This document shows, piece by piece, positions 5,726 through 64,000 of a DNA stretch of 64,000 nt (positions are counted from its first letter, which is position 1; each line of letters starts with the position of its first letter). The stretch covers positions 9,247 to 73,246 of the forward strand of contig JAFGMW010000095.1 in the NCBI GenBank assembly GCA_016927275.1, given 5' to 3'. The position numbers were made by a program, and so were the translations under genes. The notes beneath the pieces were generated by a model, which was not told the origin of the DNA, did no database searches, and worked only from the letters and a program-made list of their open reading frames with translations. This DNA comes from Pseudomonadota bacterium. Its GTDB lineage: Bacteria > UBA10199 > 2-02-FULL-44-16 > JAAZCA01.

Positions 5726-5955
5726 CCCGCGCCTTCCCCCTTTGAGTTTTGATACACCATCGGGCAGCAGATGACAATCGTCCGCAACGCGGCGGCGCAT
5801 CTGCCGGCAAACGGCCGCACGGCAAGGGTTGCAGGGCGGAGGCCCCGGGCGGCGGCGGGGGAAATTTGCCCTTGTTTTCGGAGGGGCCCCCGGATATACA
5901 GCTTCGCAATATTCAGATATCTTTACGTTTTTTTGTCTCAGGAGGAAGCGAAGAC

Positions 5956-7140: not shown

Positions 7141-7152
7141 AGGGGGGAAGAG

Positions 7153-36459: not shown

Positions 36460-36536
36460 TGGGGTGGCTAGTGGGATTTGAACCCACGACCCTCTGAGCC
36501 ACAGTCAGATGCGCTAGCCGCTGCGCCATAGCCACC
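36460..36536 (-). tRNA. tRNA-His (anticodon GTG) with G-1 and encoded CCA
   Basis: Minus-strand sequence GGTGGCTATGGCGCAGCGGCTAGCGCATCTGACTGTGGCTCAGAGGGTCGTGGGTTCAAATCCCACTAGCCACCCCA folds as cloverleaf; anticodon loop CTGTGGC; extra 5' G pairing with discriminator C is His-specific. Confidence 0.85.
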
Positions 36537-36547
36537 ATCTTTAAAAA

Positions 36548-36580
36548 CAAATTCCAAATTCCAAATTCCAAATCCCAAAT
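36548..36580. repeat. tandem heptamer repeat (AAATTCC)x3-4 upstream of tRNA-His
   Basis: caaattccaaattccaaattccaaatcccaaat; related motif recurs at 36740-36775. Confidence 0.7.
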
Positions 36581-36597
36581 AAAATTGAAAACCAAAA

Positions 36598-38618: not shown

Positions 38619-38702
38619 GCGCACCTCCTCGCCGGCCGCCTGCAATAAAAAGGCCGGACGATTACTTTCTCGGCGCTGTCGAATATTTGTTGCGGGGTTT
38701 TT

Positions 38703-44771: not shown

Positions 44772-44847
44772 AGCGCCTCCCGATCAAGGTTGAAAGCCCG
44801 GCCCCATGTCTCGGCCGGACCGCAGAAATGTTGCCTGAAAAATTCGC

Positions 44848-45201
44848 TCAGCCGTTGATGCCCTTGAAGACCACCCTCGGCGCGTCGAACCAGAGCTTCT
44901 CGAGCTGGTAGTGTTCCCGGTCCGCCTGGTAGAAGACGTGGGTCACCACGTCGCCGTAATCCAGGAGCGCCCAGCGGCCCGAGCGCACCCCCTCCTCGCC
45001 GATCGGCCTTCGGCCGGCATCCTTGAGCCCCTCCTCTATCGCCTCGGCTATGGCCTGGACCTGCCGGTCGGAGCTCCCGCTCGCTATCACGAAGAAGTCG
45101 GTGAAGCTCGTGAGCTTTCGCAGGTCCAGCACGGCTATGTCCATCGCCTTGTGGTCGGAGGCGATCTTCGCGATCCTGCGCGCCAGCGTGCGAGTGGTCA
45201 T
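44848..45201 (-). CDS. rsfS: ribosomal silencing factor RsfS (Iojap)
   Basis: DIAVLDLRKLTSFTDFFVIASGSSDRQVQAIAE...WALLDYGDVVTHVF. Confidence 0.85.
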   Translation of the reverse strand: MTTRTLARRIAKIASDHKAMDIAVLDLRKLTSFTDFFVIASGSSDRQVQAIAEAIEEGLKDAGRRPIGEEGVRSGRWALLDYGDVVTHVFYQADREHYQLEKLWFDAPRVVFKGING

Positions 45202-47402: not shown

Positions 47403-50400
47403 TTATGTGCCCGTGCGGAGCATCGCTGCGGCCGACATCATGGGCACCGCTGCGACCGAAGGCGCAAGCGGCCGGAAGGGCATCGCGAACGCAGGATTGA
47501 TCTCAGGGAGCATCGAATCCCTGTACATCACCGCACCGGTGGCCAGTGGAGACGGCTTGGGGCGCTTCTCGTGGCGGTCGAGGAAGTGGACGCGAGCGCG
47601 GCCGATTCCAAGGCCCTGCGCATGCTCGACAATGTCCTCGTCGAACTCCGCAAGCCTCGCGAATCCGCCGGCAGTATAGGCCCTCTCCACGAGCAGGTGC
47701 TCCCTGCCCTCTTCATCGCGCGTCACCTCGAGCATGCGCCTGGCCATCACCTCGCCGTCTATTATGTGGTTCGCCAGCTTGAACTGGCCCCACATAAGCT
47801 TGTTCAGCGGCTGGCCGCGACCGTTCGTCGAGTCTGCGTAGAGACTCGATAGCCGCTGGCAGGTCTCGGTTGGGATCATGCCGTGAAACGCGATCTTTTC
47901 CACCAGCCCGGTTATCTCGGTGAGCGCCGCCTTCTTCGCCGTCTTCACGCCCCTGGTGAGGCCGGTGACGAGGTTCTTGAGATCGACGCGGGCATTGGCA
48001 AAGAGGTCGCCGTAGGTCTCGCGTATCTGTGCGTACCCCTTCTCCATGATGTCGTGGAGCCGCTTCGCCTCCTCCATGTCCGCATCGCCGCTCTTCAGTT
48101 TCTCTGTCAGCGCACGCAGACCGTCCGGGAGCTCCTTGAATTCGCCGTCCGCTCCCGGCGTCGAGTTCACGTGCACGGCGAGCTGCCCTGCCGCCTGTCC
48201 CATCACAATGGCCTTCGCCTCGCTCTCGTCGACAGACTCGCCAGTGTTATGACGCAACTTCTTCCACTCCGTGCGCCAGCGCCCCACGAAATCAGGAGAA
48301 AACCCGAGCTGATCCCGCATCCTGTCGTATCGTTTCAGATAATGCAGATTACCTTCAAGGACAGGGCTCATGACGAGATCCGAGATCAGCGACCTGAGTA
48401 TCCGGACCCCTTCCTCATCCATGAACGACGCGGACTGGGCAAACAGGAGCAGAAGGCCCTTGTCGGAGAGGAATCCGCGGACTTCCTGCGCATGGCGCCA
48501 TTTCCTCGAGGACTCCCTGCCCTCCGGCTGCCCGTCCCTGAAGAGCAGGTCCACTGCCCTGTCGTCCCCGATCCTCTCGCGCAGGAATGCAAGGAGCGTC
48601 TTCTCGACACCTGACCTTAGGGCTGCCCGCGTATCGCCTTCCAGATCCCTGTGTGATCTGTAGAACTCCCTGCCCACCTCTTTCGGCAGCGAATCCAGCG
48701 CAGTCAGGGCCCTGAGCGTGCGAAGGGTGTTGCGCACGGACTTCCACTTGCCGGGATCGGTCGCCTCGAACACCCTGCTCATCACTTCTATCTTCTCGAA
48801 GGTCCAATCGCCAAGCATGTCCAGGACCGTCATGACCGAGTCGCGAAATCCGATGAAACCCGGTTGAGCGGCAAAGCCGCGCAGGTTGCGCGCGGCTTTC
48901 TCCGAAAAGCCCATGAGCTCCAGGTCCGCTACCCAGCTGCCGGACTCGAACCCGGCCTTGAAGAATCCGACAGAGGAGAGGTGATAAAAAGTCTGCTTAA
49001 AAACACCGGCGAAGCATTTCTTATCACTACAATTCCCCATGTACCATCTCAGGGATTTGTCAGCCGCACTGGCGACCGGACCCTCTGCCCTGAATTTTCT
49101 GGCCAGCAACCCATATATATGGGCCACAGATTTAATCACCCTTGTCGAATGGATTTTGTAGCTGTACCCGGGATTCAGAATCTCTATAATAGTTTGTGCG
49201 CCCTTGTAGACCTCAGGTGAGTTGTCTTCGAGTCTGTGAGCAAAGCGCGCATACGCTTCCAGGACATCCGCCACAACATCTTCCGACTGATTCCACTCCA
49301 GCATAAGTCCGCGCATTGCCGCAGCGCCTTCATGGATCTCCGGTGCTCCCTCCGCGAACTTCTTCAACAGCGCCGAATAGACACGGGCTGCCAGGCTCCG
49401 CACACGCTGTTCAGGGTACCTCATCAGACCGCGCAGGGCCTCGGCCTCGCGATAGAACTCGGGCGATGCCCCTGCAAACCTCTCTGAAAGCCTGACATAG
49501 GCATCCGCCGCTGTACCGCGCACATTCTGTTGAGGGTCCATCATCAGCCCGCGCAGGGCCGCAGCCTCCTCATAGACCTCGGGCGAACCCACCGCGAACT
49601 TCATGCACAGCCTCTCATAGCCATGAATCTCCGCATTTGTTCGCACCGCCCTTTCAGGATCTGTCATCAGCCTGCGCAGGAGAAAGGCGCCCATATGGAC
49701 GTCGGCCGAGTCCTCTTTGAATTTCGCCGACAGGATGCCATAGGTATAAGCTGCCTCGCTGCGCACATCCCATTCGGGATCTTTCATCAGCCTGCGCAAT
49801 TCCGAGGCGCCCAGCGCGACCTCGGCCGAACCCTCTGCGAATCTATCTGACAGCATTTGGTAGGCAAGGATGGCGCGGACGCGTACACCCTGTTCGGTGT
49901 CCGCCATCAGCCTGCGCAGGGCAGCCGCCTCTCTGCAGGTCTCGGGCGACGCGTCTGCGAACCTCTCCGAAAGCTTCCCGTAGGTACCGGCGGATCTGTT
50001 GAGCACATCGCCCTCGGGGTCCGTCATCAGCCTGCGCAGGGCCTCGGCCTCGCGATAGACTCCTGCAGAGCCCTGAACGAATTTCTTCGACAACATCTTG
50101 TAGGCCTCGGCTGCATCGTAACGCACACCGTCTTTGGCATCCCTCATGAGCATGCGCAGGGCCGCAGCGCCGAGATAGACCTCGGCAGAGCCCTCGATGA
50201 ACTTCTCCGACAGGGCCCCGTAGGTCCTGGCCGCAAACACGCGCTGGCCTTCCTTGTGGGAACGCATCACCCTGCGCAAAGCCTCGGCTTCGTTTATTAC
50301 CTCGGGCGGCTCCACCGCAGCCGCTGTCGACTTCGGGCGGAATAGGGAGCCGACCAGCCCGGCTATTCCGCTGAAAAAGGTCTCGACCGGCCCGGCCCGC

Positions 50401-50567
50401 ACGTAGGCGTCAACACCTCCCTCATCAAGCAGAGATGGATCGATCACGGAGGGCCGCGTATCGTCCTCTCTCGGACGCGCCAAAGGCCGCTCGGCCACTA
50501 TTTTCACGTCGTCGGACATCCCCCGACTCCTGTGCGCGCCCGGACGGGCGCGGGAAAGGTCGAACAT
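47403..50567 (-). CDS. large HEAT/PBS-lyase-like repeat protein with ~10 tandem 37-aa repeats
   Basis: Repeats of consensus EA[AE]ALRRLMxDPExxVRxxAAxAYxxLSE[RK]FAEGSPExY; underlying 111-bp DNA tandem repeats ~49230-50340 (antisense frame shows periodic HQPAQG); alternative start ATG 50519. Confidence 0.6.
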   Translation of the reverse strand: MFDLSRARPGAHRSRGMSDDVKIVAERPLARPREDDTRPSVIDPSLLDEGGVDAYVRAGPVETFFSGIAGLVGSLFRPKSTAAAVEPPEVINEAEALRRVMRSHKEGQRVFAARTYGALSEKFIEGSAEVYLGAAALRMLMRDAKDGVRYDAAEAYKMLSKKFVQGSAGVYREAEALRRLMTDPEGDVLNRSAGTYGKLSERFADASPETCREAAALRRLMADTEQGVRVRAILAYQMLSDRFAEGSAEVALGASELRRLMKDPEWDVRSEAAYTYGILSAKFKEDSADVHMGAFLLRRLMTDPERAVRTNAEIHGYERLCMKFAVGSPEVYEEAAALRGLMMDPQQNVRGTAADAYVRLSERFAGASPEFYREAEALRGLMRYPEQRVRSLAARVYSALLKKFAEGAPEIHEGAAAMRGLMLEWNQSEDVVADVLEAYARFAHRLEDNSPEVYKGAQTIIEILNPGYSYKIHSTRVIKSVAHIYGLLARKFRAEGPVASAADKSLRWYMGNCSDKKCFAGVFKQTFYHLSSVGFFKAGFESGSWVADLELMGFSEKAARNLRGFAAQPGFIGFRDSVMTVLDMLGDWTFEKIEVMSRVFEATDPGKWKSVRNTLRTLRALTALDSLPKEVGREFYRSHRDLEGDTRAALRSGVEKTLLAFLRERIGDDRAVDLLFRDGQPEGRESSRKWRHAQEVRGFLSDKGLLLLFAQSASFMDEEGVRILRSLISDLVMSPVLEGNLHYLKRYDRMRDQLGFSPDFVGRWRTEWKKLRHNTGESVDESEAKAIVMGQAAGQLAVHVNSTPGADGEFKELPDGLRALTEKLKSGDADMEEAKRLHDIMEKGYAQIRETYGDLFANARVDLKNLVTGLTRGVKTAKKAALTEITGLVEKIAFHGMIPTETCQRLSSLYADSTNGRGQPLNKLMWGQFKLANHIIDGEVMARRMLEVTRDEEGREHLLVERAYTAGGFARLAEFDEDIVEHAQGLGIGRARVHFLDRHEKRPKPSPLATGAVMYRDSMLPEINPAFAMPFRPLAPSVAAVPMMSAAAMLRTGT

Positions 50568-50686: not shown

Positions 50687-50746
50687 GCGATGGTGAGGCG
50701 ATTAACTACTTCTCCACCACATCGAATTGATCGAGGCAACCCGCGG
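50687..50746. repeat. left copy of ~50-bp imperfect direct repeat (duplicate of the rng 3' end), overlapping the last codons (QFDVVEK*) of the AAA-ATPase gene
   Basis: gcgatggtgaggcgattaactacttctccaccacatcgaattgatc vs right copy gcgatgatgaggcgattttttacttctccatcacatcgaactgctc (~85% identity). Confidence 0.6.
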
Positions 50747-52067
50747 AATAGAGGGGAATGGAAAGCAATCCATATTTCAACGAAACCCCATCTGGCAATG
50801 TCACGTCATGATGTTCAAGATTCAGATTTCCGCCATAAATTCGCACGCCGAAATCAGCGCCGCTGCGGTAAAGGTATTGATGCAGCGATTTGAGGGCCCC
50901 GTGGCTCCCAGCCTTCACCTCCACCGGGATGAGCCGTTCGCCCCTCTGCAGGAGAAAATCCAGCTGGGAGGTCGTATCCTTCTCTTCCCGAATCCAGAAA
51001 TACGGCGTCACGCGATGATGCGCGTCCATCGCAAGCAGCTCCTGCCCCACAAATGCCTCGGCCAATCCGCCGCCGAACGCCGGATCCATCAACCGCTTCC
51101 GGACCTGATCTTCGGTGAGATTCAAGACATGCGTGCACAGCCCAATGTCGAGGTGCAGCGCCTTCGGCGCTGCCTTGGGCTTCTTCACAAGAGGCGCCAG
51201 AGTCCGCGTCGTGGGCCAGACGCGTTCGACGAGCATAGCCTCATGGAGAATGGAAAATGCATTTGAAATATCTTTAGATCGCGTCTGATCTTCGGAGAGA
51301 CGCGAATATTTGATGCGCACGCCGATCTGAAACGGGACACGATCCCAGACGAGTTTGAGATGCTCCACCTCGGAGCGCTTCGAGTACTTGACGAAGTCGT
51401 CATGAAAGGAAGAATGCAGCGCATCGTGGACGACCCGGACATCTTTGATGCTCTTCGTCTCCACATAGCGACCGACTGCCTCAGGCATACCGCCCACGGT
51501 CATATAGAGCGCCACCAGCCCCAGGAGTTTTTCATGCACAGGCTGAGGAATAGTGCGGCCGATGCGCTGGCCGCGCATCTCCTTCAGGATAAGGTCCTCG
51601 CCCAGCGCTTCAAGGAATTCCTCGAACGTCACAGGATACAGATACCGGAATTCGACCCTTCCCACCGGGAACGACCACCCTTCATCCTTCATGCGCACTT
51701 CGAGCAGCGAACCGGCTGCAATGACGTGGAGACCCGGCATCTCTTCGTAAAAATATCTTAGGAGTTTAATCGCAGATACGGAGTTCTGGATCTCATCGAT
51801 GAAAAGCAGAGTCTCGCCCGGAACGATGCGTTGATTGGTCACTCCTTCGATGCTCCGGACGATATCGCGGATATCGGAAACCTCGGCAAAGATGCGGCGA
51901 AGGGCGTCCTTTTCCAGATTCAACTCGATAAAACTGTTGAACTGCCCGGCAAATTGGTGGACCAGCGTCGTCTTCCCGGTCTGACGTGCACCGCGGATGA
52001 CCAAGGGCTTTCGGTGGGCCCCATTTTTCCATTCATTTAGTGATGCCTCCAGATGGCGTCTAAACAT
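50706..52067 (-). CDS. AAA+ ATPase with C-terminal DUF4143 domain
   Basis: Walker A GARQTGKT, Walker B LLFIDEIQ; DUF4143-like C-terminal half; GC lower than flanking chromosome. Confidence 0.75.
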   Translation of the reverse strand: MFRRHLEASLNEWKNGAHRKPLVIRGARQTGKTTLVHQFAGQFNSFIELNLEKDALRRIFAEVSDIRDIVRSIEGVTNQRIVPGETLLFIDEIQNSVSAIKLLRYFYEEMPGLHVIAAGSLLEVRMKDEGWSFPVGRVEFRYLYPVTFEEFLEALGEDLILKEMRGQRIGRTIPQPVHEKLLGLVALYMTVGGMPEAVGRYVETKSIKDVRVVHDALHSSFHDDFVKYSKRSEVEHLKLVWDRVPFQIGVRIKYSRLSEDQTRSKDISNAFSILHEAMLVERVWPTTRTLAPLVKKPKAAPKALHLDIGLCTHVLNLTEDQVRKRLMDPAFGGGLAEAFVGQELLAMDAHHRVTPYFWIREEKDTTSQLDFLLQRGERLIPVEVKAGSHGALKSLHQYLYRSGADFGVRIYGGNLNLEHHDVTLPDGVSLKYGLLSIPLYSAGCLDQFDVVEK

Positions 52068-52365
52068 GACAAAATACTACCAAAAGATGAGGTTCTTTAC
52101 AACGTAATTATTCCTATAGATGAGGTTCTTTTCACTTCTCCATCCTATAAACCGCTGCAAACAGCACTTTTCGCCGAAAACTGCCAACAGGATGACATAT
52201 TTCCAGTGTGGGGCGATTGTTTCCTGACGTCCCCGTGCGCAACATCATTCCAGCCGACATCATGGGCATGGTCGCGGCTGCAAGATGCACTCACGTCTTT
52301 TCGTTTGCTTCTCATGACGATTTGACATATATCAATTCTACCATTTTTTCCTCAAGGAGGTTTTT

Positions 52366-52920
52366 ATGAAAAGGATAGTAGTTTATTTTTCGATAGTTGG
52401 TCTGTTGGTGCTCGCAGCAAAACCTGTGCGAGCCGAATCTGGAGAAGAACCCGGCAAATATTATGTTTATGTTCAAGCAGTGAACAACGGGGCCCCATTC
52501 GGCTTGCAAGAGTGTGATATGAAGGCATTTTACTGCGAAGCGGCCAACCCAGACAACTGCTGGAGTGCAAAGACTTACACAAGCGATCAGGGGGGCGCGC
52601 GTTTTTGGTTCCAGAAAGTTTTTCAGGACAGAGAAATGGGATACAATATTTATATTACCGCTACCCCTAAGATGAGTTATCTTCTCTCCAGCAAGACCTC
52701 CCCGGATTTCCTTGTTGATGCAGATCATTCCCCATACTCGTCATGGGAATCGAGATTTATATTTTATTTTGGCAAACCGGTAATAAAAAGGCTGACGACT
52801 AAAGACATAGAGATGGTTGGCACCCCGCAAGACATGAAACAAATGGTTAAAGGAGAACCGCATAGCGGCGAAGCGCATATCGAACGGTCATTGCGCAAAG
52901 TCGTGCCTTTACAAAAATGA
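52366..52920 (+). CDS. hypothetical secreted protein (low-GC gene)
   Basis: Signal peptide MKRIVVYFSIVGLLVLAAKPVRA; AT-rich codon usage; AGGAGG RBS. Confidence 0.5.
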   Translation: MKRIVVYFSIVGLLVLAAKPVRAESGEEPGKYYVYVQAVNNGAPFGLQECDMKAFYCEAANPDNCWSAKTYTSDQGGARFWFQKVFQDREMGYNIYITATPKMSYLLSSKTSPDFLVDADHSPYSSWESRFIFYFGKPVIKRLTTKDIEMVGTPQDMKQMVKGEPHSGEAHIERSLRKVVPLQK

Positions 52921-53054
52921 TTTTGGATAATCCTGAGTTGTTTTATTGATGCCCAAACAAATGCCCCGTATTTAGGGGGCATTTGTCTTTAATCCGGCAC
53001 GATCCGGAATCGGCTGCTACAAGCACCCTTTCAAGGTTCGGCAAAGGGATTAAG

Positions 53055-53520
53055 TTATCTCATCAAGCCCCATAACATTTTGCTGATGGCCTCAAGGCGC
53101 GATTTGAGGGCGGCTGCCTCAACTGGCGTGAGCAGCCTGAAGGCGCGCATGAGGTCGATGCAAGCGCCTACTTCGGCCGAGCTGGCGCGGGCGATCGTAA
53201 AGAAGCGGAAAACACAGAGCTCAGAGAGCAGATTCAGATTGAGAAAACAGATTAAGAAAACGGCGCTCAGAACTCGCCCTACCATCGCCTTACCATCGCA
53301 CTATCATCGTTTGATCATCGAACTATCATCGTATCTGTTTTTTTACCGGGCAACGGCAAACGTGCATACAGCCGCGAACGCCGCCGTTTCTTTCAAATCG
53401 CGCTCGGGTCGCTCGCCGAAACCAGCGCAGCACTCGATCTTGCGCTTGCCTTCGGCCTCATCACCTCTGCTGCGCAGGACTCGCTCAAATCGCGGCTCCA
53501 ACTCGCATTCACGATGATTG
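53055..53520 (-). pseudogene. degraded four-helix-bundle protein gene (23S rRNA intervening-sequence protein family), frameshifted
   Basis: One frame gives C-terminal ..TIARASSAEVGACIDL...LEAISKMLWGLMR; another upstream frame gives ..LRSRGDEAEGKRKIECCAGFGERPERDLKETAAF resembling the family's N-terminal half; no single intact ORF. Confidence 0.35.
53281..53335. repeat. five tandem 11-bp iteron-like repeats (ACCATCGCCTT/ACCATCGCACT/ATCATCGTTTG/ATCATCGAACT/ATCATCGTATC)
   Basis: Direct inspection; located inside the islet next to the degraded four-helix-bundle gene. Confidence 0.6.
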
Positions 53521-53565
53521 AGGCCCTCCCATGAGCCTCAATCTTCTCTCTCAGCTCGGCTTTCG

Positions 53566-53598
53566 GTGTTTCGGTTCTCGGTGTCTCGGTTCTCGTCT
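53566..53598. repeat. tandem ~15-bp repeats (GTGTYTCGGTTCTCG)
   Basis: tttcggtgtttcggttctcggtgtctcggttctcg. Confidence 0.55.
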
Positions 53599-53677
53599 TT
53601 TCGAGGTACTCGGTGGAAGGGGAAGGCGATGAAACTGCGATGGTGCTGCGATGATACGGCGATGATGAGGCGATTTT

Positions 53678-55192
<1,515 letters not shown>

Positions 55193-55198
55193 AAAATT

Positions 55199-55227
55199 CC
55201 GTGACTGGTGACTGGTGACTGGCGTGA
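55199..55227. repeat. octamer repeat array (CCGTGACTGGTGACTGGTGACTGG) between rSAM/DUF2344 stop and rng start
   Basis: Member of GTGACTSG family. Confidence 0.75.
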
Positions 55228-55230
55228 TAC

Positions 55231-57753
55231 TCATTGCTTCCAGTCAACAGAGACCTTTCTGACCTCCAGGCGCCGGGCCTGATCCTCCGGGATGCCGAAG
55301 ACCCCCTGCAGGACCTCCGAGACCTTGAGCGCGGGGCGCCGCGAATTGAGCGTGAGCCTTAACACACCTGACTCCGACACGGCAAGCTCGTCGACGTACT
55401 CCCGAAGATCCACCGCGAGCGAGATCTCCTTGCGGACCCTGGAGAAAGGCAGCGGTTTATCCGACGCGAACAGCCCCAAAGCCGCTTCCCAGCCGACCGG
55501 CAGCGAGGAGGTCGCTGCCTCGTACATGGTCCTGTGAGTCGACTCCTCGATGGAGGGGTGCGACCCGTCGATTCGCACCGCGTCCAGGACCGCCATCCCC
55601 TCCGGCAGCCTCCCCTTCATGCTCTTTACGATCTCGACTGCATCGCGCTCTACCGCAAGCTCCACGTCGGCGAACTCGACCAGGCTCTCCACGCCGACGG
55701 GGACCGCCGGCCCCGCGGCGATGCGGGCCCTGGGGTGGAATCCCTGCGAGTAGGTCAGCGGGAGCCTGGATGCGCGGAAGCCCCGGCGGAGCGCGTCGAG
55801 CGCCTCGAGGTGGCCGAGGAACGCGGCCCGGCCGATTTTGCTGAACCGGATGCGATACCTGAAGACCGTGACTGGTGACCGGTGACTGGTGACTGGTAAT
55901 TCTGGACCAGAAATCTGTGACTGACCGCCAGTCACTAGTAACGAGTCACGAGTCACGGGTGTTATACGATTCACCAGCCCCCTCTTCGGATCGCATATGC
56001 CGCAGGCGGAGCAGGCCCCCCCCGCGCAGTCCTCGGTGGCGAAAAGCGCCGCGGCGCGCCGCCTCTCCCTCTCGAGAAAATCGCGCGAGGGGCCGGCGCC
56101 GAGGCCCTCCCACGGGAAAACGCAATCGTCCGGCCGCGCCTCGAGATACCGGTTCGGATCGATCCCCGCCTCGGCGAACGCATCCATCCAGAGCGCGATG
56201 TCGAGGCGCTCGTCCCAGCCGTCGAAGCGCGCGCCCTTTTTCATGGCGATCTCTATCGCGTCCGCGAGCTCCCCGCCGCCGCGCGAGAACACCCCCTCGA
56301 GAAAACTCATCCTGGCGCTGTGCCAGCGGTACTCGAGCCCCGGGCCGCGCAGCGTCCTCTTGAGCCTGCGCTGGATCCTCTCCGTCTCCTCGATCGATAT
56401 CTGCCCCTCCCACTGCAGCGGGGTGTGGGCCTTGGGCACAAAGGTGGAGGTGGAAACTGTGACCGTGGGCCTCCTGTGATGTTTTCTCCCTATGGCGAGG
56501 CAGCGGCGTGCGACCCTCTCGATCCCCTCGATCTCGGCCTCGGTCTCCCCGGGGAGGCCGATCATGAAGTAGAGCTTCACCGCCGAGAAGCCGCCGGCGA
56601 AGACCTTCTCGACCGACGAGTAGAGATCGTCGTCGGTGTTCCCCTTGTTCACGAAGCGACGCATCCGCTCGGTGGCGGCCTCGGGGGCCAGCGTGAACGA
56701 GCCTGCGCGGGCGCTCCCCATGGAGGCGACCACCCTTGGGGTGAGCGACTCGACCCTGAGGCTGGGGAGGGTGGCGTCCACCGAGAGCGCGCAGTCGCGC
56801 TGCACCGCCTCGAGCGCGCCCTCGAGCGGGGGCCAGTCGCCGATGGAGAGCGATAGGAACGAGAACTCCTCTTTGCCGCCGGCCTCTATCGCTTCGCAGG
56901 CGATCGACGCGGCCGCAGCGCCGGACCTCTGCCTCTGCGGGCGGTAAGTGTAGCCGGCCTGGCAGAATCTGCAGCCGCGCGTGCAGCCGCGCGCCGCCTC
57001 GACCGCGGCGCGCTCCTGCGTGGCCGCGTGGGCCACGACCTGTCTTGCAGGAAAAGGGATCGCATCCAGGTCTTCCACCCTGGCCATTCCCGGCGGCCGC
57101 GCTCCATCCGCATCGTGAATCGCGGGGACATAGACGCCTCTTATCGCGCTCAACGCCTCAAGCAGCCCGGCTCGATCTTGAATCGACCCCTTGACCTTTG
57201 ACCTTTCAGCTCTGAGCTCCCTGACTGCGCGTGCGATCTCTACGGCCGCCCGCTCGCCGTCGCCGATCACGATCGCGTCGAAGAACGGGGCCACGGGCAT
57301 GGGGTTGAACGCGCACGGCCCCCCTGCCACGACGACCGGATCGCCATCGCCCCTGTCGGAGGAGCGCAGCGGTACGCCGCCCAGCTCGAGGGCGGCCAGC
57401 GCGTTCGTGTAGGTGAGCTCATAGGCGAGGCTCACCCCCACGACGTCGAACTCCCGAAGGGTCCGCTGAGACTCGAGCGAGAAGAGGCCGATCCCCCGCC
57501 CCCTGAGCCCCTCCTCCATGTCCGGCCACGGCGAGAAGCACCTGTCCGCCAGCACCCCCTCCTCTGAATTGAGGAGGTGGTAGAGGATACAGACCCCCAG
57601 GTGGCTCATGCCGATCTCGTAAGCATCTGGAAATACAAGACAAAAACGGACATCGGCATCATCCCACCCCTTCGCGCGCGCGCCCACCTCGCCGCCCGCA
57701 TAGCGGTATGGGCGGGCCACAGAGGCAATGAGATCGCGTATTTCCGGGCGCAT
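55231..57753 (-). CDS. B12-binding-domain radical SAM protein (TIGR03960-like) continuous in-frame with a C-terminal DUF2344 (TIGR03936-like) domain
   Basis: CTRGCRFCQAGY radical-SAM motif; C-terminal region VFRYRIRFSKIGRAAFLGHLEALDALRRG.. matches DUF2344; the two parts are joined in-frame across the octamer repeat locus 55866-55958; no independent start codon for the DUF2344 part. Confidence 0.7.
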   Translation of the reverse strand: MRPEIRDLIASVARPYRYAGGEVGARAKGWDDADVRFCLVFPDAYEIGMSHLGVCILYHLLNSEEGVLADRCFSPWPDMEEGLRGRGIGLFSLESQRTLREFDVVGVSLAYELTYTNALAALELGGVPLRSSDRGDGDPVVVAGGPCAFNPMPVAPFFDAIVIGDGERAAVEIARAVRELRAERSKVKGSIQDRAGLLEALSAIRGVYVPAIHDADGARPPGMARVEDLDAIPFPARQVVAHAATQERAAVEAARGCTRGCRFCQAGYTYRPQRQRSGAAAASIACEAIEAGGKEEFSFLSLSIGDWPPLEGALEAVQRDCALSVDATLPSLRVESLTPRVVASMGSARAGSFTLAPEAATERMRRFVNKGNTDDDLYSSVEKVFAGGFSAVKLYFMIGLPGETEAEIEGIERVARRCLAIGRKHHRRPTVTVSTSTFVPKAHTPLQWEGQISIEETERIQRRLKRTLRGPGLEYRWHSARMSFLEGVFSRGGGELADAIEIAMKKGARFDGWDERLDIALWMDAFAEAGIDPNRYLEARPDDCVFPWEGLGAGPSRDFLERERRRAAALFATEDCAGGACSACGICDPKRGLVNRITPVTRDSLLVTGGQSQISGPELPVTSHRSPVTVFRYRIRFSKIGRAAFLGHLEALDALRRGFRASRLPLTYSQGFHPRARIAAGPAVPVGVESLVEFADVELAVERDAVEIVKSMKGRLPEGMAVLDAVRIDGSHPSIEESTHRTMYEAATSSLPVGWEAALGLFASDKPLPFSRVRKEISLAVDLREYVDELAVSESGVLRLTLNSRRPALKVSEVLQGVFGIPEDQARRLEVRKVSVDWKQ
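55866..55958. repeat. inverted octamer-repeat arrays (CCGTGACTGGTGACCGGTGACTGGTGACTGG ...31 nt... CCAGTCACTAGTAACGAGTCACGAGTCACGG) lying in-frame inside the rSAM-DUF2344 ORF
   Basis: Member of GTGACTSG family; translated as ..TPVTRDSLLVTGGQSQISGPELPVTSHRSPVT.. linker. Confidence 0.75.
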
Positions 57754-57925
57754 GGCCGCGCTTGTAGCAGAAAGGCCTCACCCCTGGCAACCGGCTTTCG
57801 GGAAAATCGCGGGCCAGGGGGATATTCCTGCTTGATAACCGGACCTGAAAAAAGTTAGCAACTGCGCTCCGCTTCCTCCGATAACAAAGGCCCCGGGGCA
57901 AAGACCCCTCACAGAGGACTGCTCA

Positions 57926-60900
57926 ATGGTGAGAATCAAAGACGGAGAAGGAAGGATAAGCACTATCCCGCCAGGACCCATGGGCGACGAGGCGGCGCAG
58001 CCTGCGAAAGCGCCGGAGAGCGGCCGGCCGAGGGACAGCTACGCCCCTCCCCACCGCGGCCCGAGGATCATCGGCTCCCGCCGCAAGACCGGCAGCGAGC
58101 GCATATTCGAGGAGAGATACAAGAGCGATTACGGGATGGAGTCGGTCTTCTTCCTCGCCCGTCAGATAGGCGCCGACGACCCGCTCGGCAAGCGCGAGAG
58201 CGAAGCGCGGCACGTCATGACCAGGGCGCTCAGGATGCTGCGCGACGAGGCGAAGAATCACGCCGAGGGCTGGAGGCCGGGCGACAGCATCATAGAGAGG
58301 GCGCTGAGGACCGGTTACCGCGAATACCACGGAAACTCCCCGATGTCCGGCGAGCTCTTCTACGTCTTCGACCATTTCAAGTGCCTCATCGAGGACGAGG
58401 CGGAGGAGCTGGGCGTGGCCGGCAAGCTGAGCCGCAAGAAGGCGGCGGCAAGGGAAAGGCTCGGCTCGCCCGAGGCGTTCGCCCGCCGGGCCCTGAGGGC
58501 GGTCGAGCTCGCGGGCCGCGCAGGCGTGATCGCGCAGGAGATGCCGGACGGCGCCGAGGGGGCGGAGGGCGCGATCGATCTCGCCACGGAGGCCGAGGCC
58601 CTCGCCGCAAAGCTGAAGGGGCTTGGGGGCGACACAAACTCCATCGCGCGCAGCCTGAAGAGGAGGGAGGCGCTCGAGGACGCCATGGTCGCGATGGAGC
58701 GCATCGAGGCGATCGAGGATGATATCTCGCTCGCATACCTGCGCTCCGGCGCCGGGGAGAACTCGAGGCTGGCAGGCTCGATGATCGGGGAGCGCGCGCC
58801 GGAGATCGACAGGTGGTTCGCGGAGAACGGGGCCCTGCTCAGGGCGGACCGGGCGTCGGTACAGGGCGCGCTCGAGAACTACGTGGCCCTGTGGCTTGCC
58901 GAGAACCAGGGGCGCCCAGCCGGGCGGATCGGGTTCTCGAGCCGTTCCCTCAGGGGCGCCGCGGCGTCGCTGCGCTCTTCGTTGATGGGCCCGGACGAAC
59001 TCGGCAGGACGAGCGACGCCCTCAAGAGGCTCGTCTGGGAGCTGGCGAGGGGCGTGCCGGGCGACGACGGCGAAGAGACGACCTCCTCCTCGATGGACTA
59101 CGGGCAGTTCGCGCAGTCGGTGGGAAAGGGCATAGTCGATTCGGCCCAGCGCTTCCGAGAATCGATCATCGACGGGACTGCCGAGGGGGCCCCGGTCTCG
59201 GAGGAGGAGCGCAGGAAGGCGGCCGACGCCTTCCACGGCCTCTTCATGCAGTACGCCATCGGCGCCGCAGCCGCGCACCCCGGCAGGGAGCTGAGGGATG
59301 CGCTGATCGAGAACGGGCTCGAGCCCGAGATCACGAACTCCATATACCGGAACCCGGCGCTCGCGGCGGCGTTCGGCACGGCCGCGATCGAGATGCTCTC
59401 GAGGTTCTTCTCGAAGGACGTGAGCGCCAGGCCATCCCCGCCGATCGAGGCCCTGGTGCCCGCATCGCTCGCGCCCGATGCGGCGCCTGCGCAGGCGCCG
59501 GCAGACGGTGAATACGTGGAATACTCCGACGGGATGGCCATGCGCGACTTCGTGCGAAGGATGCCCTTCACCGTCACGAAGGCGCTGGCGGCAAAGTTCA
59601 AGGAGGCCACGGGCTACCCGATCGACCGATTCCTCCTCTGGGGATCGAGGAGGGCCCACTCCGGCGAGATGAGCGAGGCGATGTGGTCTTTTCTCATCAA
59701 CGCAGCAGCAGATGAGGGCGGGCTGAGGGACCTCGTCCGCTCGTACCCGCCCGAGGGGCAGAGCCGGGAGGAGTGGTTCGACAAGGTCGCCGCGATGGGG
59801 ACGTTCGAGGAGCTGGCCGCCTTCGCGGCAAACAACAAGCCCGCTCGCTCGAACAGCTCCGACTGGGAGAGATACGTCGAGCACTGCGAGAAGACGGGGA
59901 TGCCGGAGGAGATAACGGTCGAGCCAAGGACGAAGGTGGCGCTCAGGGCCGTCATACCTGCGCTGGCCTTTCTCAAGGAAGAGGCTGCGAAATACGGGAT
60001 GGCGGTGGACGTGTGGGACTACCTCGCGGCGATATACCCCGCAGCGAGGAGGATGAGACAGTCCGCGAAGGACGGCGAGATAATCATCAAGGTCCCCTCG
60101 TTCATGGCGAGGACCGCGTTCCAGAACTGGAGCCTGGAGAGCTGGGCGCGCAGGATAAGCGCCGAAAATCTCATCATCAACGTGGTGAAGTCCACCGTAG
60201 AGAGGCACAGCGGCGGTCATGTCGAGCTGGCCGAGCGCTGGAACATGCGAAAGTACACCAAGCCGCTCGCCAACACAGACCCGGAACTGGAGCGGATGCT
60301 CACCGACTTCGGCGAATTCCTCCGCTTCGTCCGCGTGCTCGACAGCTCGGGCCTGATCGCGGACAAGAGCGGCAACCGGCTGAGCTACGCCCAGGAGCCT
60401 GTGCAGAGCAGGTTTGCCGCCCGGATAGAGTTCGACCACTCCACTTACCTGAAGGCGGACAAGCCCTACTTCCCCGACGACGAGAGGCTCTTCACCGAGG
60501 CCAAGAGGGGCATCTACAGGTCGGCGCTCGAGATCGCCGGCGAGTTCATAGGGAACCTCAAGCTCCTTCCGCGGAATACCGCGATAAAAAAGGCGGACGG
60601 GACCGAGGTCACCGCGGAGGACCTCGTCAGGGAGCTGGCCGAGTACGCCAGGCGGGAGAGCTACTACCGCTGGAGCCTGCGGCACAACGATTCGATCCCC
60701 TACGCCTCGGACGACTACAGGAAGGAGATCCGCGAGTTCTTCTCGGAACTGAGGAGATGGACCCGCGGGATCGTCTACAACTCCAACATACAGGGCACGA
60801 TCTTCACCGGCCACGGGCCCACGAGATTCGTTGCGGCGAGCAGGCTCGAGGGGCACAGGGCCGGCTTCGAGCGCAGCGCCCTGCCGGTCCTCTACTTCGA

Positions 60901-63900
60901 CGACCTCATGGAGGCCAGGAAGAGATTCGGGTGGGACGCGAAGCGCATTGAGGACCTGATCGCAATCCGCATCCTGGCCCACACCGCAATATCGTGGGGC
61001 GACCTCGAGCGGAGCAAGATCAGAAACACCGCCGCGCTCGAGGACGCGGTCAGGAAGGCTTGGACGGGCGACGCCGCCTCCCTGCGCAGGGCGGCTGCCG
61101 ACTACTCGCGCCTCGAGAAGGAGCCGCTCGGATACAACTTCGAAGGCGCCGAGGCGGGTCTTCGGATACTCAGGAGGTCCAACGGGGCGCACGCCGTCCG
61201 CAGGCCGATCCTCGCGGGCGCCCTCCCCTCTGTCTCCTGGAAGGAGCAGTGGCGCCGCCACGCGGTCGACATGGGCCTCTGCCCGCAGGCGACAGACCTG
61301 GCCGTCGCGGCGATGGAGCGTTACTTCGCCCGGGGCAAAAACCTGAACGTGTACTCAGAGGACGATCTCTCGGCCGCGGTCGAGGCGGAGCTCGCCTCTT
61401 CCGGCTGGACCATGCCCGGCATGGGCGCGGAGGAAACAGCGGGCTGCCTCGTCATCCACATAGGCTTCTTCCTGCCGACTCTGGGAGTGGCCGGAGAGAG
61501 CGATGCGGCGGCACCGGCGGAGAACGGCGACAGGCCGGAGATGATGGCGGCCAGGCAGGTGGCGCAGCGGTACATGGCCCCCTTCCCCCAGATGGTCCGA
61601 AGGGGTCTCAACGTCAAGACCAGGGTCCCGATACTCGAGGACCGCCTCCTGCAGCTCGCGACGCTAGCCGCCCTCGAGGACAAGGACGGGCATCTTTCTC
61701 CGCAGAGGGTCTTCATAGCGGCAAGGGCAATAATCGACGAGTACAACTCGAGCGCCGGCGAGCAGTCCCCGCTCAGCTCGGTGGCGGACGTGCGGATCGA
61801 CGGCTCGGGGCTCGCGGGAGAGAGGCTCGCGTCGTTTGCCGCATCGCGCGCCGCAGGCGCGGGAGGCGTCAACCTCACCGCGGTGAGGCACGCATACTTC
61901 AGGCTATACGACGACTTCATGAAGGGTCGCGAGATAGACGGCCAGAGGATGACGGAGGCCCTGACCGCATCTGCGGAAGGATCCCCAGTCTCCGAGGAAG
62001 AGATGACTCTTCTTGCGGAATTCATCGAACACCAGCGGCAGGCCATGATGTCGTGGAGGGCGGTCGTTCGGGACCCGAGGTCCGGCCTGGTCGCCCATCT
62101 CAGGCAGAACTACTCTTTCCAGGACGCGCGGGTCGACGTGACGATATTCGAGTCGTTCGCCCTCAGGCTCGCGGACGCGAGGATCGCGAGCGCCGCGGGG
62201 GCCGAGCCCGTGGAGATATCCTCCGGACTCGCAGCGCAGACGCTGGCCGCGGACATCGCGGCGAAGAACCAGTTGGCGGCCTTCATGAGGTCGACCCTCT
62301 CCTCATGGATGCAGGTTTCCGCCTCGCGCATCGGCGAGCACCTGGACCTGGTGAACATGGAGATGGCGGAGCTGGCCGGGAGCACCGGCGAGGTGCCGCC
62401 TTCGGGCAGGGCCCTCCTGGAGAGGGCGGCCGATCGCCTGGGCATCCCCGGCGCAGAGGCGGTACTGGCCGACGAGAGGACCCTCTTCCTCCTCGACGAA
62501 ATCCGCGGAACAAAGTCGCGCGAGGAGCCGCTTCTCAAGTCCGCGCAGCGCCTGAAGGCGGCCGCCGAGGAGAGGATAGCGGCCGAGCGCAGGCAGAGGC
62601 GCGAGATCGAGCTCACAGCCGCCGAGGACACAATAGCGGAGACGGCGGGGACCGCCGGGGGATTCGCATGGCGCATGGCCGAGGTCCTTTCGACCTGGCA
62701 GGCCATGAAGCCCCCCTCCGAACAGGACTACGACTCGCTCAACAGGATGGCCCACTCCATAGACTCTGAAGTCGCGAGGCTCAAGCCCATCGGAGAGTCG
62801 TTCCAGCCGCTCGAGGCGGCGATACGATCGGCGCAGTCGGTCATCGACGGGTACGGGGCCCACGATGAAAATCCATCGCTCGCGCTCTCGCTCCTCGAGA
62901 CAGGCCGCGACCTCCTCTGGAGGTCGACCTCGCTGCTCGCCGAGGCGTTCGACGAGGCGGTCCTGATCATGGACAGGATGGAGAGCGCGCGGAAGCTCGC
63001 CGAGGCGAACAGGGAGCGGCTGGCGTTCGAGCGCAGGCTCTCCGGCGAGCTGGCTAACGTCGATCGGATCATATCGGAGCTGGACCCCCTGATCTCCTCA
63101 GAGACCATTCTGGAAGGGGAGGCGCAGAAGATCATGGACGCTTCCGGCAGGATCTCATCGCTGTTCTCGGGGGACGGTCCCATCGATCCCTCGACCTTCG
63201 CCGATGCGGCAGAACAGGCACACAGGCACGCCGAATCGGCCGAAGCGATGGGAACTGGGAGCGGCGAGATCATATCCAGGATAGAGGCGCTGATCGGCGG
63301 CGCAGGTACAACGCCTCCGCGGATCAAAGAGGCGCTGGCCGGCCTCGAGGAGATCGCTTCATCTGCGAACGAGGACCAGTTCGACGAGATCGACGCGGCA
63401 ATGAAGTCCCTCGCCGAGAAGGCGGCCGGGGCCCGGCGCACCCTCGCGCAGATCAGCGCGACGATCGGGCGAATCGCAGAAGAGACTGCCCGGATGAAGG
63501 CGATACTCATCGGTGCGGAGTCGCGGCTGCCTGTATCGATGCTCGCCGCCATGCCGGATCCCCTCGAGGTTGAGGGGAAGGGGATAGAGGAGCGGATCCA
63601 CGAGTTCAACCGCGGCGAGAGCAGGAACGATCCCTTCAGGAGGCACGGCAGGGCGATAAGGGATCTGGCAGATAGCGCCATGGTCCTTTCGCTGGGCGAC
63701 GCGTCGCATCTGCTCTCCCGAAGGGAGGCGGCCAGCGTGGAGCAGTGGCTGAGAGGCCCCCGCGACACCTCGCTCACGCTCCAGGACGCCTTCGGTGCGA
63801 ACGTGAGGATCGACAAGGGGCTCATGGGCGCGAGGCTCGTGGCTGCGGCCGACCTCCCCGAAGGCCATCCTTTTGCGACGATGATCGAAAACCTGAGGAT

Positions 63901-64000
63901 GGCTATCTCCGGGAACACGAACGAGGCGCTGCTCATCTCGCTTCTCGCCAGGCCGGTCGCACGCGCCCTCCTCTCCGACCTCCTCGTCGCCCTCTCGGGC
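57926..64000 (+). CDS. giant hypothetical protein, N-terminal >2024 aa (ORF open to window end; not in supplied ORF table)
   Basis: Manual translation from ATG 57926 (MVRIKDGEGRISTIPPGPMGDEAAQ...) gives a stop-free, protein-like, alpha-helical A/E/R/L-rich sequence in one frame through position 64000; minus-strand ORFs over this span (57923-61261, 62728-63936) are low-complexity antisense artefacts. Confidence 0.65.
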   Translation, partial: MVRIKDGEGRISTIPPGPMGDEAAQPAKAPESGRPRDSYAPPHRGPRIIGSRRKTGSERIFEERYKSDYGMESVFFLARQIGADDPLGKRESEARHVMTRALRMLRDEAKNHAEGWRPGDSIIERALRTGYREYHGNSPMSGELFYVFDHFKCLIEDEAEELGVAGKLSRKKAAARERLGSPEAFARRALRAVELAGRAGVIAQEMPDGAEGAEGAIDLATEAEALAAKLKGLGGDTNSIARSLKRREALEDAMVAMERIEAIEDDISLAYLRSGAGENSRLAGSMIGERAPEIDRWFAENGALLRADRASVQGALENYVALWLAENQGRPAGRIGFSSRSLRGAAASLRSSLMGPDELGRTSDALKRLVWELARGVPGDDGEETTSSSMDYGQFAQSVGKGIVDSAQRFRESIIDGTAEGAPVSEEERRKAADAFHGLFMQYAIGAAAAHPGRELRDALIENGLEPEITNSIYRNPALAAAFGTAAIEMLSRFFSKDVSARPSPPIEALVPASLAPDAAPAQAPADGEYVEYSDGMAMRDFVRRMPFTVTKALAAKFKEATGYPIDRFLLWGSRRAHSGEMSEAMWSFLINAAADEGGLRDLVRSYPPEGQSREEWFDKVAAMGTFEELAAFAANNKPARSNSSDWERYVEHCEKTGMPEEITVEPRTKVALRAVIPALAFLKEEAAKYGMAVDVWDYLAAIYPAARRMRQSAKDGEIIIKVPSFMARTAFQNWSLESWARRISAENLIINVVKSTVERHSGGHVELAERWNMRKYTKPLANTDPELERMLTDFGEFLRFVRVLDSSGLIADKSGNRLSYAQEPVQSRFAARIEFDHSTYLKADKPYFPDDERLFTEAKRGIYRSALEIAGEFIGNLKLLPRNTAIKKADGTEVTAEDLVRELAEYARRESYYRWSLRHNDSIPYASDDYRKEIREFFSELRRWTRGIVYNSNIQGTIFTGHGPTRFVAASRLEGHRAGFERSALPVLYFDDLMEARKRFGWDAKRIEDLIAIRILAHTAISWGDLERSKIRNTAALEDAVRKAWTGDAASLRRAAADYSRLEKEPLGYNFEGAEAGLRILRRSNGAHAVRRPILAGALPSVSWKEQWRRHAVDMGLCPQATDLAVAAMERYFARGKNLNVYSEDDLSAAVEAELASSGWTMPGMGAEETAGCLVIHIGFFLPTLGVAGESDAAAPAENGDRPEMMAARQVAQRYMAPFPQMVRRGLNVKTRVPILEDRLLQLATLAALEDKDGHLSPQRVFIAARAIIDEYNSSAGEQSPLSSVADVRIDGSGLAGERLASFAASRAAGAGGVNLTAVRHAYFRLYDDFMKGREIDGQRMTEALTASAEGSPVSEEEMTLLAEFIEHQRQAMMSWRAVVRDPRSGLVAHLRQNYSFQDARVDVTIFESFALRLADARIASAAGAEPVEISSGLAAQTLAADIAAKNQLAAFMRSTLSSWMQVSASRIGEHLDLVNMEMAELAGSTGEVPPSGRALLERAADRLGIPGAEAVLADERTLFLLDEIRGTKSREEPLLKSAQRLKAAAEERIAAERRQRREIELTAAEDTIAETAGTAGGFAWRMAEVLSTWQAMKPPSEQDYDSLNRMAHSIDSEVARLKPIGESFQPLEAAIRSAQSVIDGYGAHDENPSLALSLLETGRDLLWRSTSLLAEAFDEAVLIMDRMESARKLAEANRERLAFERRLSGELANVDRIISELDPLISSETILEGEAQKIMDASGRISSLFSGDGPIDPSTFADAAEQAHRHAESAEAMGTGSGEIISRIEALIGGAGTTPPRIKEALAGLEEIASSANEDQFDEIDAAMKSLAEKAAGARRTLAQISATIGRIAEETARMKAILIGAESRLPVSMLAAMPDPLEVEGKGIEERIHEFNRGESRNDPFRRHGRAIRDLADSAMVLSLGDASHLLSRREAASVEQWLRGPRDTSLTLQDAFGANVRIDKGLMGARLVAAADLPEGHPFATMIENLRMAISGNTNEALLISLLARPVARALLSDLLVALSG

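Follow-up and report, generated by a model that had tools for sequence, protein, structure and literature searches.

A giant, mostly helical protein of an uncultured deltaproteobacteria-like clade and the candidate sigma-28-type promoter element preceding its gene

Results

The giant gene and its start

The DNA analysed, referred to here as the window, is a stretch of 64,000 nucleotides from a Pseudomonadota bacterium (GenBank assembly GCA_016927275.1, contig JAFGMW010000095.1, positions 9,247 to 73,246). At its right-hand end an open reading frame (ORF) starts with ATG 57926 on the forward strand and extends stop-free for 2025 codons to the last nucleotide, divergent from genes encoding a radical SAM/DUF2344 fusion protein and RNase G (rng) (Table 1). 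A preliminary description of the window had read this frame as a real gene that continues past the window end and is omitted from the supplied ORF table for want of a stop. The ORF lister skips ORFs that run off their source, which is therefore the reason for the omission. Over all 6075 nt (window 57926-64000 = L001 3678-9752) the window agrees letter for letter with L001, a public Logan contig, and on that contig the frame continues to a full length of 2681 codons followed by TGA at L001 11721-11723. The same 2681-residue protein is deposited in GenBank as MBN1283449.1, 'MAG: hypothetical protein JXA24_06740 [Proteobacteria bacterium]' (MAG, metagenome-assembled genome), on a 75.8-kb contig.

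The GC content by codon position of the giant gene was 0.63/0.49/0.87, like that of the neighbouring radical SAM/DUF2344 gene (0.67/0.51/0.83) and rng (0.63/0.39/0.93), both of which have clear Pfam identities. The third-position value (GC3) was 0.82-0.92 throughout when calculated per 600-nt slice. The remaining five frames contain 7 to 71 stops over 57926-64000. The longest antisense ORF (57923-61261, 1112 aa) has GC contents of 0.87/0.49/0.63 by codon position, and its GC3 is therefore far under the level of the real genes; Arg, Gly, Pro and Ser together make up 36-42% of the four large antisense ORFs. The long minus-strand ORFs across the giant gene are artefacts, in agreement with the preliminary description, which had called for this comparison of codon positions and for extension of the contig to the stop.

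The frame is closed upstream by an in-frame TAA at 57836, with no ATG, GTG or TTG before ATG 57926. Assignment of this ATG as the start, also made in the preliminary description, is well supported by the NCBI call, the Shine-Dalgarno-like sequence, the family N-terminal motif M-x-[IVR]-[KDRN] and a promoter-like element 41 nt upstream. The Logan gene call begins 18 codons downstream and is probably too short. The 5' extensions in the gene calls of family members P0002 and P0003 were rejected because they would overlap the conserved promoter, and the apparent peptide conservation 5' of ATG 57926 is conservation of DNA. These data show positions 57926-64000 to be the 5' three-quarters of a real chromosomal gene that looks expressed.

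Table 1. Features of the giant-gene locus and its surroundings. Coordinates are window positions unless L001 is named; residues refer to the full 2681-aa protein.
Feature	Position	Strand	Remarks
Giant-protein coding sequence, first 2025 of 2681 codons	57926..64000	+	Open frame, GC3 0.87; continues past window end
N-terminal segment, aa ~1-68	57926..58129	+	MVRIKDGEG, then ~60 Gly/Pro/Arg-rich residues
Conserved family core, aa 618-1308	59777..61849	+	AlphaFold2: helical domains, few beta-hairpins
Signature block EP-x23-G-x3-D-x2-[DE]-[YF]-h-x2-I-x-P	59921..60039	+	Alignment block; ITVEPRT...DVWDYLAAIYP in window
Central coiled-coil-like region, aa ~1651-1950	62876..63775	+	Hydrophobicity periodicity; least conserved part
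Shine-Dalgarno-like AGAGGA	57913-57918	+	7 nt ahead of ATG 57926; sequence reading
Promoter-like TAGCAAC-N16-CGATAA	57856..57884	+	Conserved across family loci
Second element, GCAAC-N15-GCCGATAA	50573..50599	-	Upstream of HEAT-repeat gene; -10 matches 8/8
Third good copy, GAGCAAC-N16-CGATAA	165-193	-	Perfect GCCGATAA at 165-172; points to window start
B12-binding radical SAM/DUF2344 fusion (TIGR03960 + TIGR03936)	55231..57753	-	Pfam, NCBIfam; divergent from giant gene
rng	53678-55234	-	Follows radical SAM/DUF2344 gene in operon
1038-aa HEAT-repeat protein	47403..50519	-	Pfam HEAT matches; Met/Pro-rich uncharged tail ...NPAFAMPFRPLAPSVAAVPMMSAAAMLRTGT
241-aa ORF	L001 11733-12458		Past window end; two RGRP AT-hook-like motifs; Met/Pro-rich tail
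533-aa ORF	L001 12472-14073		Past window end; Met/Pro-rich tail

A family without annotated relatives

The giant protein gave no match to Pfam, NCBIfam, PHROGs or PADLOC, and phmmer against all PDB chains was likewise without result. A 9-sequence profile searched against PDB returned coiled-coil noise only (best E = 0.009), with weak matches to Smc, fibrinogen and other coiled-coil chains at E 0.01-1 (Smc coiled coil, E = 0.31). A word-indexed search of 5.8 billion clusters yielded three clusters, representing the giant itself and relatives at 57% and 54% identity; the same three proteins and nothing more were recovered in a protein homologue search with the family alignment. When 1.84 billion representatives were searched exhaustively by HMMER with a profile of residues 381-1500, 44 proteins were recovered; E was <1e-10 for 41, the lengths are with few exceptions 2000-4400 aa, and the top match of the family profile was the window's giant protein. 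Pfam domains were absent from 15 diverse family members.

Relatives were not found in GTDB genomes with a 3-sequence alignment. A degenerate DNA pattern derived from the family signature block was used on the GTDB species representatives, where it matched 28 times, and tblastn confirmed five of these matches as true family loci. These loci are labelled Deltaproteobacteria bacterium, uncultured Myxococcales (two loci) and 'bacterium' (two paralogs in one genome). The pattern gave 0 matches in 2.9 million viral contigs. Every family member that could be located lies in a MAG with the label Deltaproteobacteria, Myxococcales, Proteobacteria or 'bacterium', and the best 120 relatives of the window's RNase G (at least 60% identity) all derive from similarly labelled MAGs, none from a cultured organism. 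The family was defined operationally by the signature block within a core of ~690 aa, a length >1900 aa, a Gly/Pro-rich N-terminus and a Met/Pro-rich C-terminal tail; the window protein has the pattern at 59921 and both termini as defined. Collectively, the searches show the giant to be the founding member of a small but real, unannotated giant-protein family confined to an uncultured deltaproteobacteria-like clade. The libraries searched contain no known relative of this family in sequence or fold. One MAG, 'bacterium SO_2017_GW3_31' (L025, L027), carries two family paralogs that are 42% identical, with the promoter element at only one.

Anatomy of the protein

The complete protein has a mass of 293 kDa, a pI of 5.8 and 6 Cys in total, with Ala (14.9%), Arg (9.6%), Glu (9.4%) and Leu (9.1%) as prominent residues. 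No signal peptide was found (maximum Kyte-Doolittle value of a 12-aa window within the first 40 aa, -0.09) and no convincing transmembrane segment in the protein. These properties show a protein that is acidic, Cys-poor and, by prediction, soluble. The N-terminal motif is followed throughout the family by Gly/Pro-rich sequence, and the Gly/Pro/Arg-rich stretch of the window protein is probably disordered.

An AlphaFold2 model of the conserved core, built with 25 diverse sequences, reached a predicted local distance difference test score (pLDDT) of 78.3 and a predicted template modelling score (pTM) of 0.46, with 57% helix, 8% strand and several beta-hairpins. Foldseek with this model against PDB and BFVD returned nothing at E<=1e-3. 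The invariant or near-invariant residues across 38 family members are mainly Pro, Gly, Tyr, Trp and Ala, and no Walker A, HExxH, CxxC or RTX motif is present in the giant protein.

Residues 1651-1950 show hydrophobic periodicity at 3.5 and 3.6 residues (z = 7.3 and 3.4 versus shuffles), which is significant elsewhere only in residues 1-150, all other 150-aa windows having z<2; only 24-30% of the columns of residues 1651-1950 are invariant. The earlier characterization as an Ala/Glu/Arg/Leu-rich, predicted helical protein with no recognizable enzymatic motif is supported by the composition, the core model, the heptad periodicity and the negative searches. Past the window end follow helical C-terminal modules with the motifs SDP.L..LGWL and PEFA...LTGxExPW, present in 1 copy in this giant and in up to 4 copies in longer relatives. 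The protein ends with a Gly/Pro/Ser/Ala-rich linker and a short hydrophobic tail, ...NPIRVPGLAAGSAAFAGARTMPPTLFMASARAFL.

A conserved element of sigma-28 type

When the intergenic DNA of five loci encoding proteins 21-57% identical was aligned, a single conserved island was revealed, AAAAA..TAGCAAC-N16-CGATAA. Of the nine family loci with enough upstream DNA, eight have the exact 13-base pattern, 31-88 nt ahead of the start codon. The family -10 half reads (T/G)CCGATAA, and its CGATAA core is exact in 8/9 loci. The sigma-28 -10 consensus is GCCGATAA, and TCTAAAG is the -35 sequence of Pseudomonas aeruginosa fliC (PMC12784957). The -10 part in the window, TCCGATAA at 57877-57884, fits that consensus at seven of eight positions. 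The -35 part, TAGCAAC, is 14 nt upstream, the spacing found for TCTAAAG in P. aeruginosa fliC (PMC12784957); the two sequences match at three of seven positions and, of TAAA, AA alone is kept. No sigma-70-like site was found within 57700-58000. A reading as an extracytoplasmic function (ECF) sigma site (AAC...CG) was dropped, since the full CCGATAA -10 fits sigma-28 better.

The second element precedes the gene for the HEAT-repeat protein, and orthologous GAAAC-N15-GCCGATAA elements occur before the same MSDDVK... start at L002 102-128 and L004 1074-1100. The third copy faces the window edge; the intervening 164 nt contain no ORF start, and therefore a long leader or small RNA is possible, although Rfam at gathering threshold returned nothing. 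From these sites we infer a putative sigma-28-like regulon behind the giant and HEAT genes.

Weaker copies of the element were noted at window 38667-38693 and L039 18624-18650, before an unannotated gene that lies directly downstream of a gene encoding an unusual fusion of a TatD-family DNase domain and a radical SAM domain, conserved in a related genome (window 38703-40091, minus strand, 462 aa; L039 17142-18572, 476 aa). A degenerate GCAAC-N15-CCGAGAC precedes the gene at 42555-44860 (minus strand), which encodes a 738-aa protein without Pfam match and with an uncharged Ala/Met/Pro tail (...SGSWALSAGAAAMPAWR); this protein may be a further regulon member.

Synteny and rate of change

The giant gene is divergent from the radical SAM/DUF2344-rng pair also in L002, L004, L033, L034 and L036, an arrangement kept for relatives at 57, 55, 27 and ~21% identity and for P0011. 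The preliminary description had located the gene after this cluster. The adjacency is correct and is kept in relatives, whereas the gene is divergent from the cluster and not downstream of it. Compared with its two closest lineages, the window lineage shows identities of 91% for rng, 90-94% for yajQ, 67-68% for the radical SAM protein and 55-57% for the giant; in more distant lineages the radical SAM protein is 59% and 51% identical and the giant 27% and ~21%. As judged from these comparisons, the giant gene is vertically inherited, fixed in position and fast-evolving.

Downstream of the giant gene on L001 are the 241-aa ORF, the 533-aa ORF and yajQ, at spacings of 9, 13 and 34 nt. The 241-aa ORF scores 16.3 bits against Pfam AT_hook, below the cutoff of 17.4. 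The 533-aa protein (L001_533) is related at E = 2e-50 to L034_777, a 777-aa protein with internal repeats encoded directly after the 27%-identical giant P0007. Eight such neighbour proteins contain no Pfam family above threshold. The 241-aa and 533-aa ORFs were considered as paralogous fragments of the giant and rejected, the BLASTP comparisons being not significant.

A low-GC island (window 50706-53600, GC 0.45-0.50 versus 0.62-0.70 around it) separates the HEAT gene from rng and contains a gene for an AAA_14/DUF4143 ATPase together with small ORFs that lack annotation. In L002 this slot is occupied by AAA_14/DUF4143 and DUF6036 genes and in L004 by two 23S_rRNA_IVP genes, and it therefore looks like a variable insertion hotspot.

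The HEAT-repeat protein and shared C-terminal tails

The HEAT-repeat protein is a putative co-regulated partner of the giant. The start of its gene is probably ATG 50519 (MSDDVK..., with AGGAG 7 nt upstream) and not ATG 50567, which would give 1054 aa. The leader between promoter and start contains a GC-rich palindrome, GCGCCCGTCCGGGCGC (~50536-50551), that is kept in L002 and L004.

The last 30 residues were compared among 45 proteins, comprising the products of 42 window genes and the giant, 241-aa and 533-aa ORFs. The four highest Met+Pro counts were those of the 533-aa (12), HEAT (9), 241-aa (7) and giant (5) proteins, the tails of which all carry little charge. Across 39 giants the last 30 residues contain 5.2 Met+Pro versus 2.0 expected from the body of the same proteins (Wilcoxon p = 1.5e-7). 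In the P0011 locus the tail of the giant can be aligned with that of an 847-aa neighbour (z = 10, 0/300 shuffles). The N-terminus (MASINGTGGNGKAPP...) of this unannotated neighbour (L033 9372-11915) mirrors that of the giant as does its tail, which suggests that tails co-evolve within a locus. A reading of 'VRMxGLTxG' as encapsulin-cargo-like was dropped, no shell gene being nearby and the protein being far too large.

Discussion

The giant family, its kept synteny, the conserved promoter and the shared tails are new here; the sequence itself was already deposited. Giant orphans are no rarity among MAG-encoded proteins. Core-like synteny, promoter and shared tail type together set this giant apart from an ordinary hypothetical protein. 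An uncultured clade devotes 6-13 kb of coding capacity to a protein without relative in curated families or solved folds, and the fixed position and letter-perfect promoter despite 21% protein identity point to an important, lineage-defining function.

The explanation favoured, tentatively and with less than even confidence, is that the giant belongs to a sigma-28-like regulon and acts as a modular scaffold without enzymatic activity, docking through its terminal peptides. The non-enzymatic character is suggested because the conserved residues are of the Pro/Gly/Tyr/Trp/Ala type, catalytic motifs are absent, divergence is fast and no fold match was obtained. The layout of such a scaffold would proceed from a disordered Gly/Pro-rich N-terminus through a helical core of novel fold, a coiled coil and the C-terminal modules to the linker and tail, with the fast-evolving central coiled coil serving as a spacer or oligomerization rod between conserved helical domains. 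The gene would be transcribed from the conserved sigma-28 (FliA/WhiG)-type promoter, as would that of the HEAT-repeat protein, at least one other large helical member of the regulon. The giant, HEAT, 241-aa and 533-aa proteins would carry their similar tails as a common docking peptide that gathers them at one receptor or assembly, perhaps helped by the N-terminal motif, and the outcome would be a phase-specific structure in the cells of the lineage.

Several observations weigh against this scaffold reading. The tails of the window's own lineage (P0001) are not alignable with those of the neighbours (z = -1.0 against L001_241 and 0.3 against L001_533), the likeness being only compositional in this lineage. 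The promoter element is missing in one of the nine loci (L025, the second paralog of one genome), its -35 half (GCAA) deviates from the canonical TAAA, and no fliA, flgM or flagellar genes were seen in the 64-kb window and the short loci. The contig L039, with an rng 76% identical and the gene order of the window kept, has ORFs at the place of the giant that were rejected as family members for lack of homology, and the giant gene is therefore not universal in the clade. The confident model covers 691 of 2681 residues only; AlphaFold2 on residues 381-1500 with 3 close sequences gave a pLDDT of 40.6 and was discarded. Since there is no homology to a characterized scaffold, the function is read from the architecture only. 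The beta-hairpins and conserved Asp, Arg, Asn and His of the core may mean an active site of unrecognized kind, and an exported protein would be just as good a fit to the disordered N-terminus, few Cys, promoter and signal-like tail.

The main rival is export of the giant and its tail-bearing neighbours by a flagellar-type or other type III system, or by a type IV or type I-like system that recognizes an unstructured signal at the N- or C-terminus. The exported proteins would work outside the cell as an effector, as an adhesin or as a structural element, for instance during a predatory or attack phase. Export is regarded as somewhat unlikely, although much of the evidence can be read this way: the promoter is of the class from which late flagellar export substrates and the attack-phase regulon of Bdellovibrio are transcribed, the short conserved N-terminal motif leads into a disordered Gly/Pro/Ser-rich stretch without a Sec signal, the protein is acidic and very poor in Cys (6 in 2681 aa, pI 5.8), an uncharged Met/Pro-rich tail on a flexible linker, family-wide and common to neighbours, could act as a C-terminal signal, and evolution is faster than that of the housekeeping neighbours. 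On the other hand, no genes for type I secretion ABC transporters or membrane fusion proteins, type III secretion, type IV coupling or flagella were found in the window or the fetched loci, which are a small part of each genome; RTX repeats and flagellin, hook or known effector domains are absent; the tail matches no described secretion signal that could be tried; and the stable housekeeping synteny is less typical of effectors. An enzyme or nucleic-acid-handling machine with a catalytic domain too divergent to recognize, in one version linked to rng, radical SAM/DUF2344, MiaB-like and YajQ functions and to the AT-hook-like partner, is considered improbable. The kept adjacency to rng and the radical SAM gene, joined in several lineages by yajQ and a MiaB-like gene, the RGRP motifs of the 241-aa ORF, sub-threshold as they are, and the mixed alpha/beta elements with conserved polar residues D677, R782 and N1256 in the core are compatible with such a machine. 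Nevertheless, the giant gene is divergent from rng and the radical SAM gene with a promoter of its own, adjacency to yajQ is not universal, nucleotide- or metal-binding motifs and enzyme fold matches are lacking, and the evolutionary rate is far above that of the neighbouring enzymes.

Two further explanations concern the nature of the locus. A mobile-element, phage or defence protein residing in the chromosome, such as a polyvalent protein or giant defence effector, is very improbable and largely refuted. Giant orphans are common in such elements, and the low-GC variable region with the AAA_14/DUF4143 ATPase is 6 kb away (50706-53500); yet there were neither PHROG nor PADLOC matches nor any occurrence on the 2.9 million viral contigs, GC and GC3 are identical to those of host genes, no integrase or transposase is adjacent, and the place between housekeeping genes is kept across lineages down to 21% identity. 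Long spurious ORFs do arise in high-GC DNA, and six minus-strand ORFs >150 aa overlap the giant frame, as expected if the open frame were due to chance and an antisense ORF were the real gene. This explanation is refuted by 2025 stop-free codons (2681 in full) with a GC3 of 0.87 throughout, by antisense frames with 7-71 stops or the wrong codon-position GC, and by 44 homologues with conserved blocks and collinear architecture as well as the conserved promoter and Shine-Dalgarno sequence.

The -10 (T/G)CCGATAA of the giant gene and the spacing of its -35 resemble those of sigma-28 (FliA/SigD/WhiG) regulons (PMC12784957), although the -35 is TAGCAAC or GCAAC and not TAAA or TTAAG, and regulation is here read from sequence alone. 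In Bdellovibrio, a sigma-28-type TTAAG-N16-CCGATA drives two-thirds of attack-phase promoters, including those of many non-flagellar, uncharacterised genes (PMC3627812); such a promoter therefore need not mean flagella. The FliA attack-phase regulon of B. bacteriovorus is similar also in that the element stands before large, uncharacterised non-flagellar proteins (PMC3627812).

The coiled coil is ~11% of the giant, which consists mostly of conserved globular helical domains and is only partly similar to Scy and FilP of Streptomyces, Ccrp, EzrA and the arms of SMC; proteins of the Scy/FilP/Ccrp type have heptad or hendecad coiled coil over most of their sequence, and the Pfam, NCBIfam and PDB searches gave no homology to coiled-coil scaffold families. 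SMC-like proteins have ABC-type ATPase heads (Walker A/B) at both termini and a hinge, whereas the giant has no SMC ATPase heads, no Walker A motif and no Pfam or NCBIfam match. With the HEAT/ARM alpha-solenoids the giant shares large size and helical character, and it is co-located with a true HEAT protein of the same promoter and tail type, but it is without the profile-detectable tandem helical repeats or solenoid fold of HEAT/ARM/TPR proteins. It differs from RTX/type I substrates by 0 GGxGxD motifs in the whole family and the absence of transporter genes in the loci, from flagellar axial and late export proteins by the absence of flagellar domains (Pfam, NCBIfam) and of neighbouring flagellar genes, and from phage polyvalent and anti-phage defence proteins by the absence of PHROG/PADLOC matches and viral-contig occurrences and by the housekeeping synteny.

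The C-terminal tip of SSB, the C-terminal peptide of FtsZ and the C-terminal signals of type I and type IV secretion substrates are short peptides for interaction or export. The low-complexity Gly/Pro/Ser/Ala linker and short hydrophobic tail of the giant recall these in plan, and the tail type is common to several proteins of the same locus or regulon. The tail itself, Met/Pro-rich and uncharged, is unlike SSB (DDDIPF), the FtsZ peptide and RTX/type I signals. A wider proposal, distinctly doubtful at present, sees in the giant, its small partners and the HEAT protein the visible portion of an undescribed sorting or assembly system under sigma-28 control. In such a system, the Gly/Pro linker and Met/Pro-rich uncharged tail would be an address label, a C-terminal targeting signal of a new kind, by which very large helical proteins reach either a dedicated apparatus for export or a phase-specific cellular structure; if true, this would add a new principle to bacterial protein sorting. 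Otherwise the family remains a clean new target for structural genomics, with several helical domains of unknown fold and the repeated SDP..LGWL / PEFA..LTGxDxPW modules. The shared tails provide a testable hypothesis of a common docking or targeting signal, and the sigma-28-type element is a handle for regulon definition in organisms that cannot be grown.

Other features of the window

Adjacent genes for a deoxyhypusine-synthase-like protein and an Orn/DAP/Arg decarboxylase are located at window 5749-8286, unrelated to the giant gene, and the pair suggests homospermidine or polyamine synthesis. A short AT-rich tandem repeat of CAAATTC-like units (TTCCAAATTCCAAATTCCAAATCCCAAAT) with locally low GC is present at 36552-36585, adjoining the gene for tRNA-His (36460-36535, minus strand), the only tRNA gene in the window.

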